Below, in pieces: positions 40,342-45,509 of a stretch of DNA of 64,000 nucleotides. Position 1 is the first letter of the stretch, and each line of letters starts with the position of its first letter. The notes beneath the pieces are model-generated. The model searched no databases and had not been told where the DNA came from. It saw only the letters and a list, made by a program, of their open reading frames with translations. Location of the stretch: positions 65,507 to 129,506 of the forward strand of contig JAPOIM010000002.1 of the NCBI GenBank assembly GCA_029978905.1, read 5' to 3'. Origin of the DNA: Planctomycetota bacterium. GTDB taxonomy: Bacteria; Planctomycetota; Planctomycetia; Pirellulales; UBA1268. The translations under genes were made by a program, and so were the position numbers.

Positions 40342-42018
40342 ATGACCGCTCCAACACCCTCTGCAGTACGCGGCACGCTGAACGACTACCTCGATGCCAG
40401 CGACATCATGGACGTGCCTCCGTTGACGGACGCTGCCTGGGATGCGATCCGCCAGCAATCCGGACGATCTCTCGCCTGGAAGTTTTGCACGCTTCGCAAT
40501 CTGCTCGTCCACCGGGGGAAATTTGTCAATGATGCCAACGGCTTTGCTTGGGGAGGCATCTACCGCACGCTCTTTGTCACCTCGATCACTACGACCTCCT
40601 ATCGCAATGAGGGGCACTTCCGCTCCGGCGAGCGGATCCAAGGCACGAACGATTTCTTCTTCGGTTCGTTTGTGTTGCCCAAATCCGCATCCGAGTTTCG
40701 AGATATCGTGCGGGTCGTGAATCTCCGACACCACGTGGCTGGCGTCGCCCGCCCCACGCTCGATGGCGACGTCCGGGTGATTGATCCGTATGAGGCTGAC
40801 TACGCCTATGTGGCCACCTCGTTCATCGAATCCATCCGCCGCGGGCTCACGCTCTGTGGTTCGTCACGCGAAGGGGACAGCAACCAAGAACTGGCTTGGA
40901 AGGTGGCGATGATCCTCTACCAACTTGCCGGCTTTACAGGCCTCAAGCGGATGCCGCGGAATCTCGCCGCGCACGACCGATTTTGTGCCGCCTTCGACCA
41001 GCGGCTGCGTGAACACGCACCCTCGTCGCGCGTGCGTCGGATGGCCCAAGAAATCGCTTGGCGGATCATCCCTTTCACCGCCACCATGGCGGGCACCACC
41101 GTCGCCAAACACGTGCACCGGCATATCGATCCGGAAACGCGCGAGTTGCTGTTTCCAGGTGGGGAGATCCCCGAGGAACTCGAACAGCAGCGACAGGGGT
41201 GGCAACGTCGCCGAGACACAACGGGAGCGGTCGAGCAGATTCGCGGCCGATCGTTGAAACGCAAAGAGCTCTACCAGCGTTCCGACGTGGCTGCTCTCCG
41301 CACCGCCTACCAAGATGCCCAGGACGAAAAGACCGATGACCTCGTCGTCGCTCGCTTGATCGGCGCGATTCTCCTGCACGCCATCGATGCTGGAAAAGAC
41401 GAAAAACCACTCGAACGGCGCACGGTTGAACTGTCCGCTGGAGAATCGCTGATTCAGGAAGGGGCCACGGTGGAGGAGATGTTTGTGGTGCTTTCGAGCA
41501 CCGCCCCGCTCCTCGCTCGCCAGGTTGACGCGTCGGCCCCATCGGGCGATCGGCTCCTTGCGACAATCACCGCACCAACGGTGCTCGGTGAAATCGGCAT
41601 GTGGCGTGAGAAGCCTGCGGTGGCCACGGTGGCTTCCAAGGAGCCCAACCGACTCGAAGTACTCGTGATCGACCGTCGGCGATTTCAGATCCTCAAGGAA
41701 GAACCTGGCTTTCGGGCAGCGATCGCCGCCGAACTCCAGCGGCGGCTGGCGATGAACGCGGTGCGGGTGGGCTCCCTGTTGGACGACACTGCGGCCCGTA
41801 CGCAAGACCCTCAACTGCGTTCCATCGCGCAACTCTTCCGCTACCTCACCGGAGACTCCCACGGATCACTCGACGCCGTGATCGACCTTCCCGCTTCCGC
41901 AACGCCCGCAGAGTGCACCGAAGCCCTGCGAACCCAGGTGGCGGCGGTGATGGCGACCGACCGCCTTGAGCCCGAGCTCATGCAGCACCTGCGAAACATC
42001 ATGACCACGCTCGGGTAG
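40342..42018 (+). CDS. Hypothetical protein: Lcp/MpaB (DUF2236)-like N-terminal domain plus C-terminal cNMP-binding-like domain
   Basis: N-terminal ERIQGT...VVNLRHH...DYAYVATSF...GLKRMP; C-terminal LSAGESLIQEG...EMFVVL...LGEIGMW...ATV...LEVLVIDRRRF. Confidence 0.65.
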   Translation: MTAPTPSAVRGTLNDYLDASDIMDVPPLTDAAWDAIRQQSGRSLAWKFCTLRNLLVHRGKFVNDANGFAWGGIYRTLFVTSITTTSYRNEGHFRSGERIQGTNDFFFGSFVLPKSASEFRDIVRVVNLRHHVAGVARPTLDGDVRVIDPYEADYAYVATSFIESIRRGLTLCGSSREGDSNQELAWKVAMILYQLAGFTGLKRMPRNLAAHDRFCAAFDQRLREHAPSSRVRRMAQEIAWRIIPFTATMAGTTVAKHVHRHIDPETRELLFPGGEIPEELEQQRQGWQRRRDTTGAVEQIRGRSLKRKELYQRSDVAALRTAYQDAQDEKTDDLVVARLIGAILLHAIDAGKDEKPLERRTVELSAGESLIQEGATVEEMFVVLSSTAPLLARQVDASAPSGDRLLATITAPTVLGEIGMWREKPAVATVASKEPNRLEVLVIDRRRFQILKEEPGFRAAIAAELQRRLAMNAVRVGSLLDDTAARTQDPQLRSIAQLFRYLTGDSHGSLDAVIDLPASATPAECTEALRTQVAAVMATDRLEPELMQHLRNIMTTLG

Positions 42019-42156
42019 CCACCTGGGGCGACGAACTGCCGCAGCGCGACTTCAGCGGCGCGTAGCCGCCCGAAGAGATTCAGCCGAGCATCTACCTCAA
42101 GCCTTTGGCAGAGTTCGCGACGGGGCTCATGAAAGGCGATGACTTGAAACGCCGGA

Positions 42157-43263
42157 TCACTCGAGCCGCTGCTGCCTGCGTCGCCATCGCCAGCCGCCGA
42201 TCCCGCCCAAGCCAGCAAGCAGGAGCCCCATCGTCGACGGCTCCGGCACGGGAGCCACCAACCGGAAGCCGGTATCGTAGTTGGCCGTCGTCACGGAGAT
42301 GTCCAAACCAGCCCCGGCACCAAATGCATTCAGGTTCCAAGCTCCACCGCGCAGGATCGCGCTGCCCGTTGAACCAGCCGTCGACGTCCATTCCGACACA
42401 TTACCAGTCTGGTCGAACGTGCCGTAGTAACTCGCGCTGCCCGAGTAGGACCCCACATCAGTGAGGTAGTTTTGCGTTGAATCAAGCGTACTGCTCTGCG
42501 TAAGCGAATACGTCCCGCTTGGCGCTGTACCGACATACACGTTCGCTTGATTTGGCGTACTCCCAACTGCGTTGCCAGGGGCGATGTCACTCTGCGTTGC
42601 GTAGTCGGTGTAGGTGCCCGTGCTCCCGTTGTAGTAAGCGGCTTTGTACCACTGATCCGATGTGGGAAGCGCATAGATGGGAGCCGCACTCGTGTTGGGA
42701 TTCGTTAGGTTCAGCGCAACTACACCCGTCGCTCCAGATAAGTTGTACGCCCCGTTCTCAGTCGTACTTGCAGCTTGCACCCCGGTGGATGGCTGCCCAT
42801 TCGCCATCCAATTCGCGAAGCGGGCGGCGTTGGACCAATTCACAAACGTTACTGGTCTATTCGCGGTCGTTGCCGCAGCGTACTGCGTGCCTCTTGGCCC
42901 CGTCGCGGAATACACGTACAGGTCACCAGTCGTCCCGTTTCCCGTCCGCGAGATCCCGCCATTTTGATTAGCGTCGTAAGACGTGTTGAAGATTGTCTCG
43001 CTGCTGGTCTTCGCTACGGCGTTGAGAAACTCAACGTACTGACCGATGGTCACTTCGTATTTGCTGATTTGATACGAAGTGGCAACCGCGCCATACCCGC
43101 CTGTATCAGCCGTGTTGCCCGGATTGCCGACGGTGACCATCGACATGGTGACGGCCGCGGCGTCCCGTGGCACTACGGCTGACGCAAGACACGTGAAGAC
43201 ACAAGCGACGCAGATCATTGCCCTTTTGGGCAATGAACGGCCAAAAAAAATGTCACAAACCAT
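42157..43263 (-). CDS. PEP-CTERM protein with FGE-sulfatase/SUMF1-like (lectin-type) domain
   Basis: Signal peptide; MVTVGNPGN, KYEVTIGQY.EFLN, RPVTFVNW.NAARFANW, LPTSDQWYKAAYY, DQTGNVSEW, RGGAW, GFRL; C-terminal VPEPST + TM + RWRRR. Confidence 0.92.
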   Translation of the reverse strand: MVCDIFFGRSLPKRAMICVACVFTCLASAVVPRDAAAVTMSMVTVGNPGNTADTGGYGAVATSYQISKYEVTIGQYVEFLNAVAKTSSETIFNTSYDANQNGGISRTGNGTTGDLYVYSATGPRGTQYAAATTANRPVTFVNWSNAARFANWMANGQPSTGVQAASTTENGAYNLSGATGVVALNLTNPNTSAAPIYALPTSDQWYKAAYYNGSTGTYTDYATQSDIAPGNAVGSTPNQANVYVGTAPSGTYSLTQSSTLDSTQNYLTDVGSYSGSASYYGTFDQTGNVSEWTSTAGSTGSAILRGGAWNLNAFGAGAGLDISVTTANYDTGFRLVAPVPEPSTMGLLLAGLGGIGGWRWRRRQQRLE

Positions 43264-43433
43264 TCCAACACGATGCCCTCAGCACCGCCCCCTAATCAAA
43301 AACCATGTTCCTAAAACAGTGTTTCGCGGGATAGCCGGGCAAAAACCCCGTTCAGCCAACTCCTGCCGCCGCGGCTAAAAAACCGCCTCGGCGAACGAGG
43401 AGAGAAGTCTCAACACGAACTGATGGATAAGGC

Positions 43434-43955
43434 TCAACCGAGCATAACCACCGCGAGAGCCACCACCGCAGCGCCCATGCTCACCGGCAGGGTGAGGATC
43501 GAGCGGGCGAGATCGCGGCCAGGGAGAATCATCTCCCGCTCGGCAGGCGTCATCTCGAGGAACTCCTCGAGGGCAGAGATCGATATCGGCTTGACCATTG
43601 AGTGGTCAGCGCCATGCTCAGTGGCTTCCCAATGACCGGGCTTGCCCGGGACTTCACTGACGATGGCCACACGCTGCTCGCCACCTTCAGTATCGGTGGC
43701 CTTGCTAGTCTCAAGGTGATGGCGAAGCAGTTCGACAAAGTCGAGGCCCGACATGTCATCAAGATCAGCAGCCACGAGCCAGGCATCGACCGATCGCCGC
43801 GACGCCAGAGCCAAACCTTCCTCTCCTGAACTTCTCAGGTGGAGATGGATCCGTCCTTCACGGGCACTGGCAGCAAGATCGTGATACGCGTCAAACCGTG
43901 GATCAACAACGACAACGTTTGGCGTGTGGATCGTCTTCGCGCTCTTGCTGACCAT
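43434..43955 (-). CDS. Atypical (pseudo-)receiver domain protein with C-terminal TM anchor
   Basis: VVVVDPR, DAWLVAADLDDMSGLDF, GADHSMVKPI; phospho-acceptor position is Ala; hydrophobic tail AAVVALAVVMLG. Confidence 0.72.
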   Translation of the reverse strand: MVSKSAKTIHTPNVVVVDPRFDAYHDLAASAREGRIHLHLRSSGEEGLALASRRSVDAWLVAADLDDMSGLDFVELLRHHLETSKATDTEGGEQRVAIVSEVPGKPGHWEATEHGADHSMVKPISISALEEFLEMTPAEREMILPGRDLARSILTLPVSMGAAVVALAVVMLG

Positions 43956-44006
43956 GATGAACTCCCTGGCTAAAAACCGAGTGAATGATTCGATGGATTG
44001 GTGATC

Positions 44007-44522
44007 TCAGAGAACGCCAGTGGCGGTCTCAACATCAGCGGTCGGCCGAAGGGCCGCTACGAGTTCCGCTGCGACTGGCTGCACGAGGTAGCCAGCAATG
44101 CCGGCCGAAAGAGCCTCTTGTTCTTCTTCGAGGCTGTAGTCGTCGGCCACCATGAAGATGCCGGCGTGACGAGCCTGCCCAACGCGACCGAGCGATCGGC
44201 GATGCCCTCGCAGGAACGGATCGACCTCGCCTTGGCTAACCTGATCCGCCAGCAGCGGCAGCAGGTCAAAACCTTCCATGTCGGGCAGGTCAGTGCTCAC
44301 CAGCCACACATCGGCTCGGAATCGCCTCGCCAACTTCAGGGCAGACTGTGCGTCGCAACAGAAGTGCAATCCGATCTCGCCATTCGTCGCGGCGTCAACG
44401 AAGTGAGCGTAACGATCGCAGCGCGGGTCAACGATCACCACTTCGCAGGCTTCGCGACTGGTGTCGGCAGGAAGCGATACGACGCTCTTTGCTGAACGGT
44501 CGTAGGCGTTGGGGAGGTTCAT
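44007..44522 (-). CDS. Atypical (pseudo-)receiver domain protein
   Basis: VVIVDPR, DVWLVSTDLPDMEGFDL, AGIAGYLVQPV; acceptor position is Ser and the conserved Lys is Gln. Confidence 0.72.
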   Translation of the reverse strand: MNLPNAYDRSAKSVVSLPADTSREACEVVIVDPRCDRYAHFVDAATNGEIGLHFCCDAQSALKLARRFRADVWLVSTDLPDMEGFDLLPLLADQVSQGEVDPFLRGHRRSLGRVGQARHAGIFMVADDYSLEEEQEALSAGIAGYLVQPVAAELVAALRPTADVETATGVL

Positions 44523-44586: not shown

Positions 44587-44970
44587 TCAGTCGTCAACAC
44601 CAACGGTGGGACGGGAGGCGGAGGTCTTCGACGCCACGGCAGCTCGCAGGGTGTCCCAGCTCGACGTCATCGGAGGCACACCAAACAGGTCACCAACCAC
44701 GGCTGGGAGCACGGCAGCCGAGATACCCGTCACCGAACGAGCGGCGACCACCTGCTCGGCTTCGGCACGAGTCAGCCCCATCACCGAGATCACCGCTGTG
44801 TCGCTGAGATCAAGCGTCAACGAACCACTCGGGAGCGGCACGGACAGAAACGTGGGCTCGATGCCGAGGGCCTTTCGGCTCCCTGCGTCGTCAGCAAAGG
44901 CAGTCGTGCCACATGCAAGCGTCGCGACAACCGCAGCGACCAACAGTTTGAATGAAGATGCACGTGACAT
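44587..44970 (-). CDS. Small secreted hypothetical protein (127 aa)
   Basis: Signal peptide ending AFA-DD; AGGGG upstream of the ATG; co-oriented with the two receiver genes. Confidence 0.65.
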   Translation of the reverse strand: MSRASSFKLLVAAVVATLACGTTAFADDAGSRKALGIEPTFLSVPLPSGSLTLDLSDTAVISVMGLTRAEAEQVVAARSVTGISAAVLPAVVGDLFGVPPMTSSWDTLRAAVASKTSASRPTVGVDD

Positions 44971-45058: not shown

Positions 45059-45187
45059 CTACGAGACGACGGAGATCAGTGACAAAAACGCGACAATCGG
45101 CACCACACAGCAGAGGATGTCTGCATGCGTGAGCTGCAAGGAATCAGCCAGCGACGAGGCTGAACCTGCCTTCCCACGAAAGTTCAT
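45059..45187 (-). CDS. Unannotated 42-aa small membrane protein
   Basis: AGGAG 7 nt before ATG 45187; MNFRGKAGSASSLADSLQLTHADILCCVVPIVAFLSLISVVS*; about 70 nt downstream of the predicted sigma54 start site. Confidence 0.55.
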   Translation of the reverse strand: MNFRGKAGSASSLADSLQLTHADILCCVVPIVAFLSLISVVS

Positions 45188-45267: not shown

Positions 45268-45284
45268 TGCAGATCGCGTGCCAA
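45268..45284 (-). promoter_or_regulatory. Sigma54 (RpoN) -24/-12 promoter
   Basis: Minus strand TTGGCACGCGATCTGCA: perfect TGGCACG, GG-N10-GC spacing, one mismatch (C for T) in TTGC. Confidence 0.75.
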
Positions 45285-45382: not shown

Positions 45383-45509
45383 TGGAGCGAATCGCACCAC
45401 CCCCTGGAGCGATTCGCTCCAGCCCCCCCCCCTAAAAGACCTAAAGGTGGAGCGATTCGCTCCACCCCCCTGGTGCGATTCGCTCCACCCCCTGGTGCGA
45501 ATCGCGCCA
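45383..45509. repeat. Array of five 17-bp palindromes, consensus TGGWGCGA-W-TCGCDCCA, joined by C-runs
   Basis: Units start at 45383, 45405, 45448, 45471 and 45493 (spacings 22, 43, 23, 22 bp). Units 2 and 3 are identical: TGGAGCGATTCGCTCCA. Confidence 0.92.

Follow-up and report, generated by a model that had tools for sequence, protein, structure and literature searches.

The window analysed here, a stretch of 64,000 nucleotides (nt) of contig JAPOIM010000002.1 (assembly GCA_029978905.1, forward-strand positions 65,507 to 129,506) from a planctomycete of the GTDB lineage Pirellulales; UBA1268, carries on its minus strand two adjacent genes that we call B and A, in this order and with an intergenic gap of 51 nt. 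They stand at the end of an apparent operon that reads five palindromes, a -24/-12 promoter element, a micro-open reading frame (micro-ORF), a gene for a 127-amino-acid (aa) protein, B and A (Table 1). An earlier note on this DNA had described the products of A and B as tandem paralogous pseudo-receivers that lack the phospho-acceptor aspartate, and the coordinates it gave for both genes were exact. The kinship is also clear: BLASTP aligned 64 positions, spanning the motifs quoted in that note, with 29 identities (45%, E = 4e-16), global identity is 31%, and the two family profiles matched each other in hhalign with a probability of 99.8% (E = 7.9e-28, 120 columns).

Matches of both proteins to the Pfam family Response_reg (PF00072) were weak and below the gathering score (24.4 bits for A and 26.3 bits for B at a cut-off of 30.2); some of their relatives carry a precomputed PF00072 match, and the NCBIfam scan returned weak partial response-regulator matches and nothing else. 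The profile and structure alignment to CheY-type receivers that the earlier note had proposed as a check recovered the receiver fold. For this, single-chain AlphaFold2 models were built with the family alignments and run with Foldseek against the PDB. The model of B (mean predicted local distance difference test score, pLDDT, 71; core about 90) has the elements beta1-alpha1 to beta5-alpha5 in normal order, and its top 50 PDB matches were all receiver domains (E about 1e-6, TM-score on the target about 0.75). In the model of A (mean pLDDT 63) confidence is limited to the N-terminal three fifths (beta1-alpha3); receivers accounted for all but one weak match among the top 50 (E about 1e-3), and the A profile aligned to Mycobacterium tuberculosis PrrA across residues 15 to 135. 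The predicted (beta-alpha)5 flavodoxin-like receiver fold is, by these models, well supported for B and confident for A only in its N-terminal part.

B additionally contains an insertion, QG[DE]VDPLLxGSRxSL, within residues 95 to 115 (window positions 44178-44240), in which V100, P102 and G106 are invariant. RcsC's canonical acceptor loop (SDVNMPNMDGYRL) aligns better to this segment than to the beta3 loop of B itself, a hint that the beta3-alpha3 region was partly duplicated within B. A register in which the insertion would serve as the acceptor loop was rejected, as in the AlphaFold2 model the strands follow in their normal order and beta3 covers residues 72-76.

Three lines of evidence agree on the position of the phospho-acceptor. 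Alignment of B to Vibrio cholerae CheY4 places Ser76 opposite the acceptor Asp, the alignment of the A profile to PrrA places Ala62 there, and beta3 in the B model ends at Ser76, which is the canonical acceptor place; the replacement of the acceptor by Ser in one protein and Ala in the other had been read correctly from the letters alone. Residue frequencies were counted in alignments of 118 B-type and 116 A-type sequences (234 close homologues). At the acceptor place the B family has Ser in 84, Ala in 28, Gly in 4 and Asn in 2 sequences, the A family has Ala in 114 and Ser and Gly in one each, and Asp occurs in none of the 118 and none of the 116. Neither family thus keeps the phospho-acceptor Asp at the C-terminal end of beta3, nor a conserved phosphorylatable switch residue in its stead; in B the position looks like a constraint for a small residue rather than a conserved phospho-site. 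The acidic pair that binds Mg2+ after beta1 is likewise lost. It reads D32-P33 in B and D18-P19 in A, as previously noted, and while its first Asp is invariant in both families, the second residue is Pro in all 116 A sequences and P, A, S, T or V across B. The conserved Thr/Ser after beta4 and Lys after beta5 are not maintained either: at the Thr/Ser place the B family has A, S or G (Ala126 here) and the A family is highly variable, including A, G, E and S (Ser100 here), whereas the Lys place is Gln148 in B, the Gln already reported for 44007-44522, with Arg in 106 and Gln in 10 of the 118 relatives, and Lys122 in A, with His in 41, Lys in 36 and Gln in 30. A normal phosphotransfer site is missing from both families, and A and B could not take a phosphoryl group at the canonical position. 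With a receiver fold and no acceptor Asp, both belong to the recognised class of aspartate-less receivers.

Homologues at E <= 1e-3 numbered 459 for A and 263 for B, and the two genes are therefore not chance ORFs. In B, 34 columns are invariant among the 118 sequences, mostly in beta1, alpha1, alpha2-beta3 and the beta3-alpha3 loop, and both families are under strong purifying selection. Decaying or non-functional paralogues are ruled out by the hundreds of homologues under such selection and by a second full cassette in the same genome that is about 80% identical. An exhaustive HMMER search with the B profile among 1.84 billion cluster representatives (50% identity) returned 602 matches at E <= 1e-3, of which 155 were at <= 1e-10 and 24 at <= 1e-30. 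Among the 150 matches listed, nearly all are single-domain proteins of 120-230 aa. From this distant set 146 representatives were retrieved, and the beta3-loop motif was readable in 111: their acceptor place is Asn in 54, Ala in 29, Ser in 10, Gly in 8, His in 4 and Thr, Cys and Arg in 2 each, and never Asp. The clade is lineage-specific, comprises at least 602 clusters at 50% identity by its matches to the B profile, and lacked the aspartate in every member with a readable motif. The absence of Asp from an entire clade suggests that the receiver fold is used there for something other than phosphotransfer, and action without His-Asp phosphotransfer, which had been proposed from the two genes, is supported by its complete absence from the B and A sets and from the readable distant representatives.

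Strong matches to A and B were found in 8 of 10 sampled genomes of the GTDB family to which the window belongs and in no other family sampled. A phylum-wide distribution was rejected, as 300 further genomes sampled elsewhere in the phylum gave no match at E <= 1e-10. Outside its own family, but within the order, genomes contain a related protein of "Asn type" (…LW[ML]IN..LPDMSG…) without transmembrane helix or micro-ORF. The 80 further loci recovered come from uncultured Pirellulales or Planctomycetota metagenome-assembled genomes (MAGs), many of them from lakes. A and B appear to be an ancient paralogous pair within a family of single-domain pseudo-receivers that lack the aspartate and are specific to Pirellulales.

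A differs from B by its C-terminus. Residues 153-171 of A form a single hydrophobic 19-mer at the extreme C-terminus (Kyte-Doolittle 19-residue mean 2.34), and nothing else in A and no segment of B exceeds 1.6. The predicted C-terminal transmembrane helix in one copy, which the earlier note had pointed out, is present in A in 80 of 80 genomic loci, and it is conserved in sequence and not just in hydrophobicity (…TLPVxxGAAVxAxAVLMxG-COOH). One C-terminal helix and no N-terminal signal peptide is the layout of a tail-anchored protein, and the basic residues that precede the tail fit an N-in, C-out anchor, the topology that A would then have. A full-text literature search combining "tail-anchored", "receiver domain" and "response regulator" found no tail-anchored single-domain receiver, and such proteins appear not to have been described previously.

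Table 1. Features of the A/B locus, in window coordinates.
Feature	Position	Strand	Remarks
FGE-sulfatase-domain protein with PEP-CTERM anchor	42157..43263	-	PF03781 5.9e-21; PEP-CTERM 31.7 bits
Terminator-like hairpin CCTCGTTCGCCGAGG with T-run	43386..43400	-	34 nt past the stop codon of A
A	43434..43955	-	173 aa; predicted tail-anchored aspartate-less pseudo-receiver; acceptor place Ala62; DD pair D18-P19; acidic beta3-alpha3 loop ADLDDMSG; predicted transmembrane helix 153-171
B	44007..44522	-	171 aa; predicted soluble aspartate-less pseudo-receiver; acceptor place Ser76; DD pair D32-P33; Thr/Ser place Ala126; Lys place Gln148; conserved 13-residue insertion between alpha3 and beta4
127-aa protein	44587..44970	-	N-terminal signal or lipobox-like sequence (…ATLAC/G…)
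42-codon micro-ORF MNFRGKAGSASSLADSLQLTHADILCCVVPIVAFLSLISVVS	45059..45187	-	basic N-terminus, then predicted C-terminal transmembrane helix; supported by hidden Markov model and codon pattern
Sigma-54-type -24/-12 element TGGCACGCGATCTGCA	45268..45283	-	equivalents in the loci of relatives
Five 17-bp palindromes TGGNGCGAWTCGCNCCA	45383..45509		starts 45383, 45405, 45448, 45471 and 45493; candidate enhancer for a sigma-54 activator

The operon is headed by cis-elements that are shared with its relatives. The palindromes upstream of the micro-ORF, repeats of "GGAGCGAATCGCTCC", occur genome-wide in 18 copies forming 5 arrays, against none for a reversed-pattern control. Besides the one in the window, arrays lie on contigs C110 (before the paralogous cassette), C12 (before a 251-aa PEP-CTERM gene), C43 and C219. 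Among the 65 A loci with enough flanking sequence, the palindrome was found upstream of A in 62 and a -24/-12-like element in 61; in a smaller set of 10 loci, 8 had the palindrome and 9 had a GGCAC-N6-TGCA element located 120-230 nt ahead of the micro-ORF. For the 65 loci, the sigma-54 counts, like those of PEP-CTERM genes below, rest on simple regular expressions. A sigma-70 promoter scan of the region found nothing. By these elements the micro-protein, B and A are co-encoded behind a predicted sigma-54 promoter with an upstream palindrome array, and the array is common to the A/B operon and at least one other predicted PEP-CTERM surface-protein gene of the genome.

The micro-ORF is the most constant partner of A, more so than B. 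On other contigs, B or A genes are preceded by short genes (39-42 aa) that share its C-terminal sequence. A hidden Markov model (HMM) built from five copies and run on six-frame ORFs recovered the micro-ORF from all examined loci that contain B, and placed it upstream of A in 60 of the 65 loci. B stands immediately before A in 39 of the 65 and, with an extra ORF in between, in five more. Besides the start Met, L19, T20, D23, C27, P30, F34, S36 and S39 are invariant (L-T-x2-D-x3-C-x2-P-x3-F-x-S-x2-S). Nucleotide differences between copies fall on codon positions 1, 2 and 3 in the numbers 323, 132 and 552, a pattern which argues that the micro-ORF is a translated gene, and with a Kyte-Doolittle 19-residue mean of 2.71 it probably encodes a tail-anchored membrane micro-protein, of 35-42 aa across the relatives. 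A word-based protein search with the 42-aa sequence gave 3 matches only, probably because such short ORFs are rarely annotated.

Neither Pfam nor NCBIfam assigns the 127-aa protein to a family. Its copy in the second cassette is 79.5% identical, and among relatives the operon may or may not include it; in one of these (L001) a different secreted protein fills its slot. Downstream of A, the hairpin CCTCGTTCGCCGAGG is the probable end of the operon; its position is suggestive only, as the terminator scan overall was not above chance (3 found, 3.0 expected). No sigma-54 element or palindrome was found at 43263-43434, ahead of the FGE-sulfatase/PEP-CTERM gene, which is associated with the cassette and is probably a separate transcript.

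The second full cassette, on contig C110, consists of a palindrome array, the micro-ORF, the 127-aa gene, B' and A', with proteins 78-80% identical to those of the window, and is followed by the gene of a 211-aa protein with a PEP-CTERM-like end. Across the relatives, which are uncultured and largely lake-derived Pirellulales MAGs, the operons recur in two architectures. In the window type (Type 1) palindromes and sigma-54 element are followed by the micro-ORF, sometimes a secreted protein, B and A, and often by a PEP-CTERM protein, with examples of about 600-650 aa and, in L001, a 609-aa S8 peptidase. In Type 2, found in at least 15 loci with a -24/-12 element in most of them, palindromes and sigma-54 element are followed by a small PEP-CTERM protein, the micro-ORF and A, without B. 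All of these small PEP-CTERM proteins belong to a single family (…GSLAWAGENET…), in which the anchor, APEPPALVLAGMAFGGVLCGRSLLMRRRK, hardly varies. Type 2 operons encode three transmembrane helices together, one each in the PEP-CTERM anchor, the micro-protein and A's tail, and all three show conservation of sequence beyond mere hydrophobicity. As called, the ORFs of the small PEP-CTERM family measure about 105-220 aa and share the motif GS[LF]AWAGE[ND]E and the anchor pattern APEPPA[LI]VLAGMA[FL]GG[VL][LI]CGRS; the gene stands first in the operon, upstream of the micro-ORF, in L081, L082, L084, L086, L097, L098, L104, L117, L119, L122, L126, L129, L132 and L003.

PEP-CTERM genes adjoin the cassette or share its operon in many relatives, and within the GTDB family the cassette also co-occurs with exosortase. 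The seven other A/B-positive genomes are exactly the seven that contain an exosortase (PF09721), with one match each, and the two A/B-negative genomes have no match; this co-occurrence is only suggestive. The genome of the window encodes 11 sigma-54 activators, of which two to four, among them those on C20 (343 aa) and C153 (352 aa), lack a regulatory domain and would thus need a regulator acting in trans.

We regard it as moderately probable that a receiver fold with a lost phosphorylation site, co-encoded behind a sigma-54 promoter, provides here a phosphorylation-independent, membrane-associated pair of adaptors for a sigma-54/PEP-CTERM regulon. In this reading the tail anchor, which is conserved in sequence, would keep A on the cytoplasmic side of the membrane, beside the micro-protein and possibly the anchor helices of PEP-CTERM proteins, and B would be the soluble partner of A. 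Instead of serving catalysis, the strongly conserved acidic "active-site" face (VVDP…, D-x-W-L-V, L-x-D-M-S-G) may be a surface for binding other proteins, and the module could inform a sigma-54 activator about the condition of PEP-CTERM proteins or exosortase at the membrane. We hold this specific feedback mechanism tentatively, as rather doubtful. In an extended form, the micro-protein, A and B would constitute an unrecognised signalling device, whose transmembrane helices sense PEP-CTERM anchors (unprocessed or exosortase-bound) and whose phosphorylation-free relay ends at a sensor-less sigma-54 activator. This we consider unlikely; if true, it would be a feedback loop setting the output of surface proteins in lake-dwelling Pirellulales.

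Several observations weigh against an adaptor pair of this kind. The model of A has low confidence in its C-terminal half. About one third of the operons are micro-A without B, and some B loci have no adjacent A; B is therefore not an obligate partner and the pair not an obligate unit. A PEP-CTERM gene was found nearby in just 23 of the 65 loci, and the exosortase co-occurrence rests on 10 genomes, giving a one-sided hypergeometric p of 8/120 = 0.067. The genome of the window itself, 94% complete, has PEP-CTERM proteins and two cassettes and yields no PF09721 exosortase match, so that its exosortase gene either lies in the missing ~6% of the assembly or has been lost. Finally, orthologues of the C20 activator (66-70% identity) occur in 3 of the 7 other A/B-positive family genomes. 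This domain-less activator, the one among the 11 that was profiled, does not track A and B cleanly and was rejected as their cognate regulator.

Phosphorylation at another residue would make A and B ordinary single-domain response regulators or phosphate sinks. The obvious candidate lies two positions beyond the acceptor place (Asp78 in B, Asp64 in A), and the earlier note had itself allowed that a neighbouring Asp might sit in the acceptor pocket. In its favour, the residue is acidic in 230 of the 234 close homologues (116 of 118 B and 114 of 116 A), the DD pair keeps its first acid without exception, and the loop contains more acidic residues. A conserved Asp in the pocket is nevertheless disfavoured: the residue is Glu in the majority of B sequences (74 of 118) and R, Q, S or V in the wider family, and in the B model it is in the loop, two residues past the end of beta3 at Ser76. 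Moreover, the second metal-binding acid is Pro, the Thr/Ser and Lys places are not conserved (A, G, E or S and H, K or Q in A; A or S and R in B), and no histidine kinase gene was found in the operon in any locus seen, all of which makes phosphorylation at this residue highly improbable. The suggestion that the Ser copy is the substrate of a Ser/Thr kinase, which would switch B through Ser76, fares little better and is improbable. Ser is indeed the commonest residue there (84 of 118) and a frequent substitution in aspartate-less receivers, for which such switching has been raised in the literature (PMC4395418); a Ser/Thr kinase gene also lies a few kb from one A locus (L046), though such kinases are very common in planctomycetes. 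However, Ala, Gly or Asn stands in its place in 34 of the 118 B sequences with all else conserved; about a quarter of the family naturally has the Ala that an S76A allele would carry. The A family has Ala in 114 of 116, and no kinase is a conserved neighbour.

Two further explanations leave phosphorylation aside. The degenerate pocket might bind a small ligand such as cyclic di-GMP (c-di-GMP) or a divalent metal, so that A and B would act at the membrane as receptors for second messengers or ions. Binding of c-di-GMP by degenerate receivers has precedents in VpsT and BcsE REC* (PMC7840130) and, reportedly, in the ShkA pseudo-receiver (PMC7010744), B has an invariant Arg-rich segment (R66-R67-F-R69-A-D71), and the acidic cluster is kept in both proteins. 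No recognised c-di-GMP motif (RxxD I-site, VpsT W[FLM][TS]R) was found by eye, however, and the operon contains no diguanylate cyclase or phosphodiesterase; we therefore judge ligand binding decidedly unlikely. Alternatively, A and the micro-protein could be structural accessories of PEP-CTERM sorting that, for instance, hold the anchor for exosortase, with B as a chaperone-like cytoplasmic partner and no signalling involved. The three sequence-conserved transmembrane helices encoded together in Type 2 and the co-occurrence with exosortase within the family speak for this. Exosortase is, however, present in 120 of 151 sampled Pirellulales genomes while strong A/B matches are confined to their own family, which indicates that the module is not a general requirement of sorting; the receiver fold is typical of signalling proteins, and the genome of the window has the cassette twice and no detectable exosortase. 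A role in sorting alone thus appears quite unlikely.

The adaptor reading has precedents of differing closeness. The Psp response is controlled by PspF, a sigma-54 activator without regulatory domain, together with the partners PspA and PspB/PspC, so that small membrane proteins and a soluble partner govern the activator. The A/B operon resembles it in having a sigma-54 promoter with an upstream array of activator sites, small membrane proteins and a soluble partner, and domain-less sigma-54 activators are also encoded in this genome. It differs in lacking a PspA/IM30-like protein and in employing pseudo-receivers, and the likeness is one of logic only. In enterobacterial cellulose secretion, the small membrane protein BcsF recruits BcsE. 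Here, too, a degenerate receiver acts at the membrane with a very small single-pass membrane protein, in connection with a surface or export apparatus; yet the degenerate receiver REC* of BcsE is part of a multi-domain, c-di-GMP-binding protein (PMC7840130), bears no sequence relationship to A and B, and belongs to another regulon in another phylum. As for the output side, Haft et al. reportedly described in 2006 a PEP-CTERM/exosortase system with the regulators PrsK, PrsR and PrsT. Of these, PrsR is of the canonical NtrC type, can be phosphorylated and is paired with a kinase. Both systems place sets of PEP-CTERM genes behind a shared cis-element and depend on a sigma-54-type activator; A and B, in contrast, have no acceptor Asp, no AAA+ domain and no DNA-binding domain, a comparison made on the proteins themselves, as Prs orthologues were not searched for.

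Closest are the aspartate-less receivers FrzS, RitR, ChxR and HP1043, which share the (beta-alpha)5 fold without acceptor Asp and whose activity is presumed to be independent of phosphorylation (PMC4395418, PMC12632262). Asn, Ser, Gly and Ala are among the commonest acceptor substitutions in this class (PMC12632262, PMC4395418). Nearly all characterised members carry an output domain or a coiled coil, whereas A and B are single-domain proteins in tandem, with A tail-anchored; their clade is lineage-specific and showed Asp in none of the members read, and their operon, preceded by a sigma-54 element, also encodes a membrane micro-protein. In the literature we found no description of a lineage-wide clade of single-domain receivers without Asp in any member read, of a fixed pairing of a receiver with a membrane micro-protein, or of receivers in a sigma-54/PEP-CTERM operon. 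Of about 2 million known receiver domains, several percent are pseudo-receivers, and according to a 2025 review the switching of the bacterial ones is largely unknown (PMC12632262). The cassette offers a well-defined system for asking this question: the operon is compact and repeatedly duplicated, with a sigma-54 element and palindrome array, a fixed membrane partner and a PEP-CTERM output, and its two natural architectures, with B or with the small PEP-CTERM protein, can be compared. Its hosts are abundant uncultured planctomycetes of lakes, whose surface biology is poorly known.

Further observations concern the spread of the cassette and its relatives. The genome of the window has a third copy of A (C47, L018, G000:C47 458-847), which follows a PEP-CTERM gene and breaks off after residue ~105. 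From there its frame continues into sequence resembling the palindromes (…LERFAPP…), as though insertion or recombination had brought an enhancer array or a repeat into the gene. By ORF reading only, an AbiEi/AbiEii-like pair apparently lies downstream of it. In several genomes of the family (L001, L005/L048, L047, L049 and L051) the micro-B-A cassette has conserved surroundings, consisting of obg, L27, genes for a 557-aa protein, a ParA-like protein and proteins of 208 aa and 75 aa, a DHQ-synthase-like gene and then micro-B-A, followed by a PAP2 protein and MacB-type ABC genes. The two full cassettes of the window's genome sit elsewhere, which suggests that the cassette moved or was duplicated in that genome. 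The region 42001-44000 has the lowest G+C content of the window (0.587), and the G+C content at third codon positions is 0.65-0.67 in the A and B genes of the window vs 0.80 in the paralogous copies on C110, pointing to different compositional histories of the two copies.

Several of the cassette-bearing MAGs are labelled "Candidatus Kuenenia stuttgartiensis", "Chitinophagaceae" or "Planctomicrobium piriforme", labels that are probably loose or wrong. Among the Asn-type proteins, a subgroup (P0273, P0277, P0279, P0285, P0286, P0309, P0321, P0333 and P0339) ends in …[IL]LPF…R[RS][RP][PS]AA, a C-terminal motif which suggests another partner-binding tail in the superfamily.

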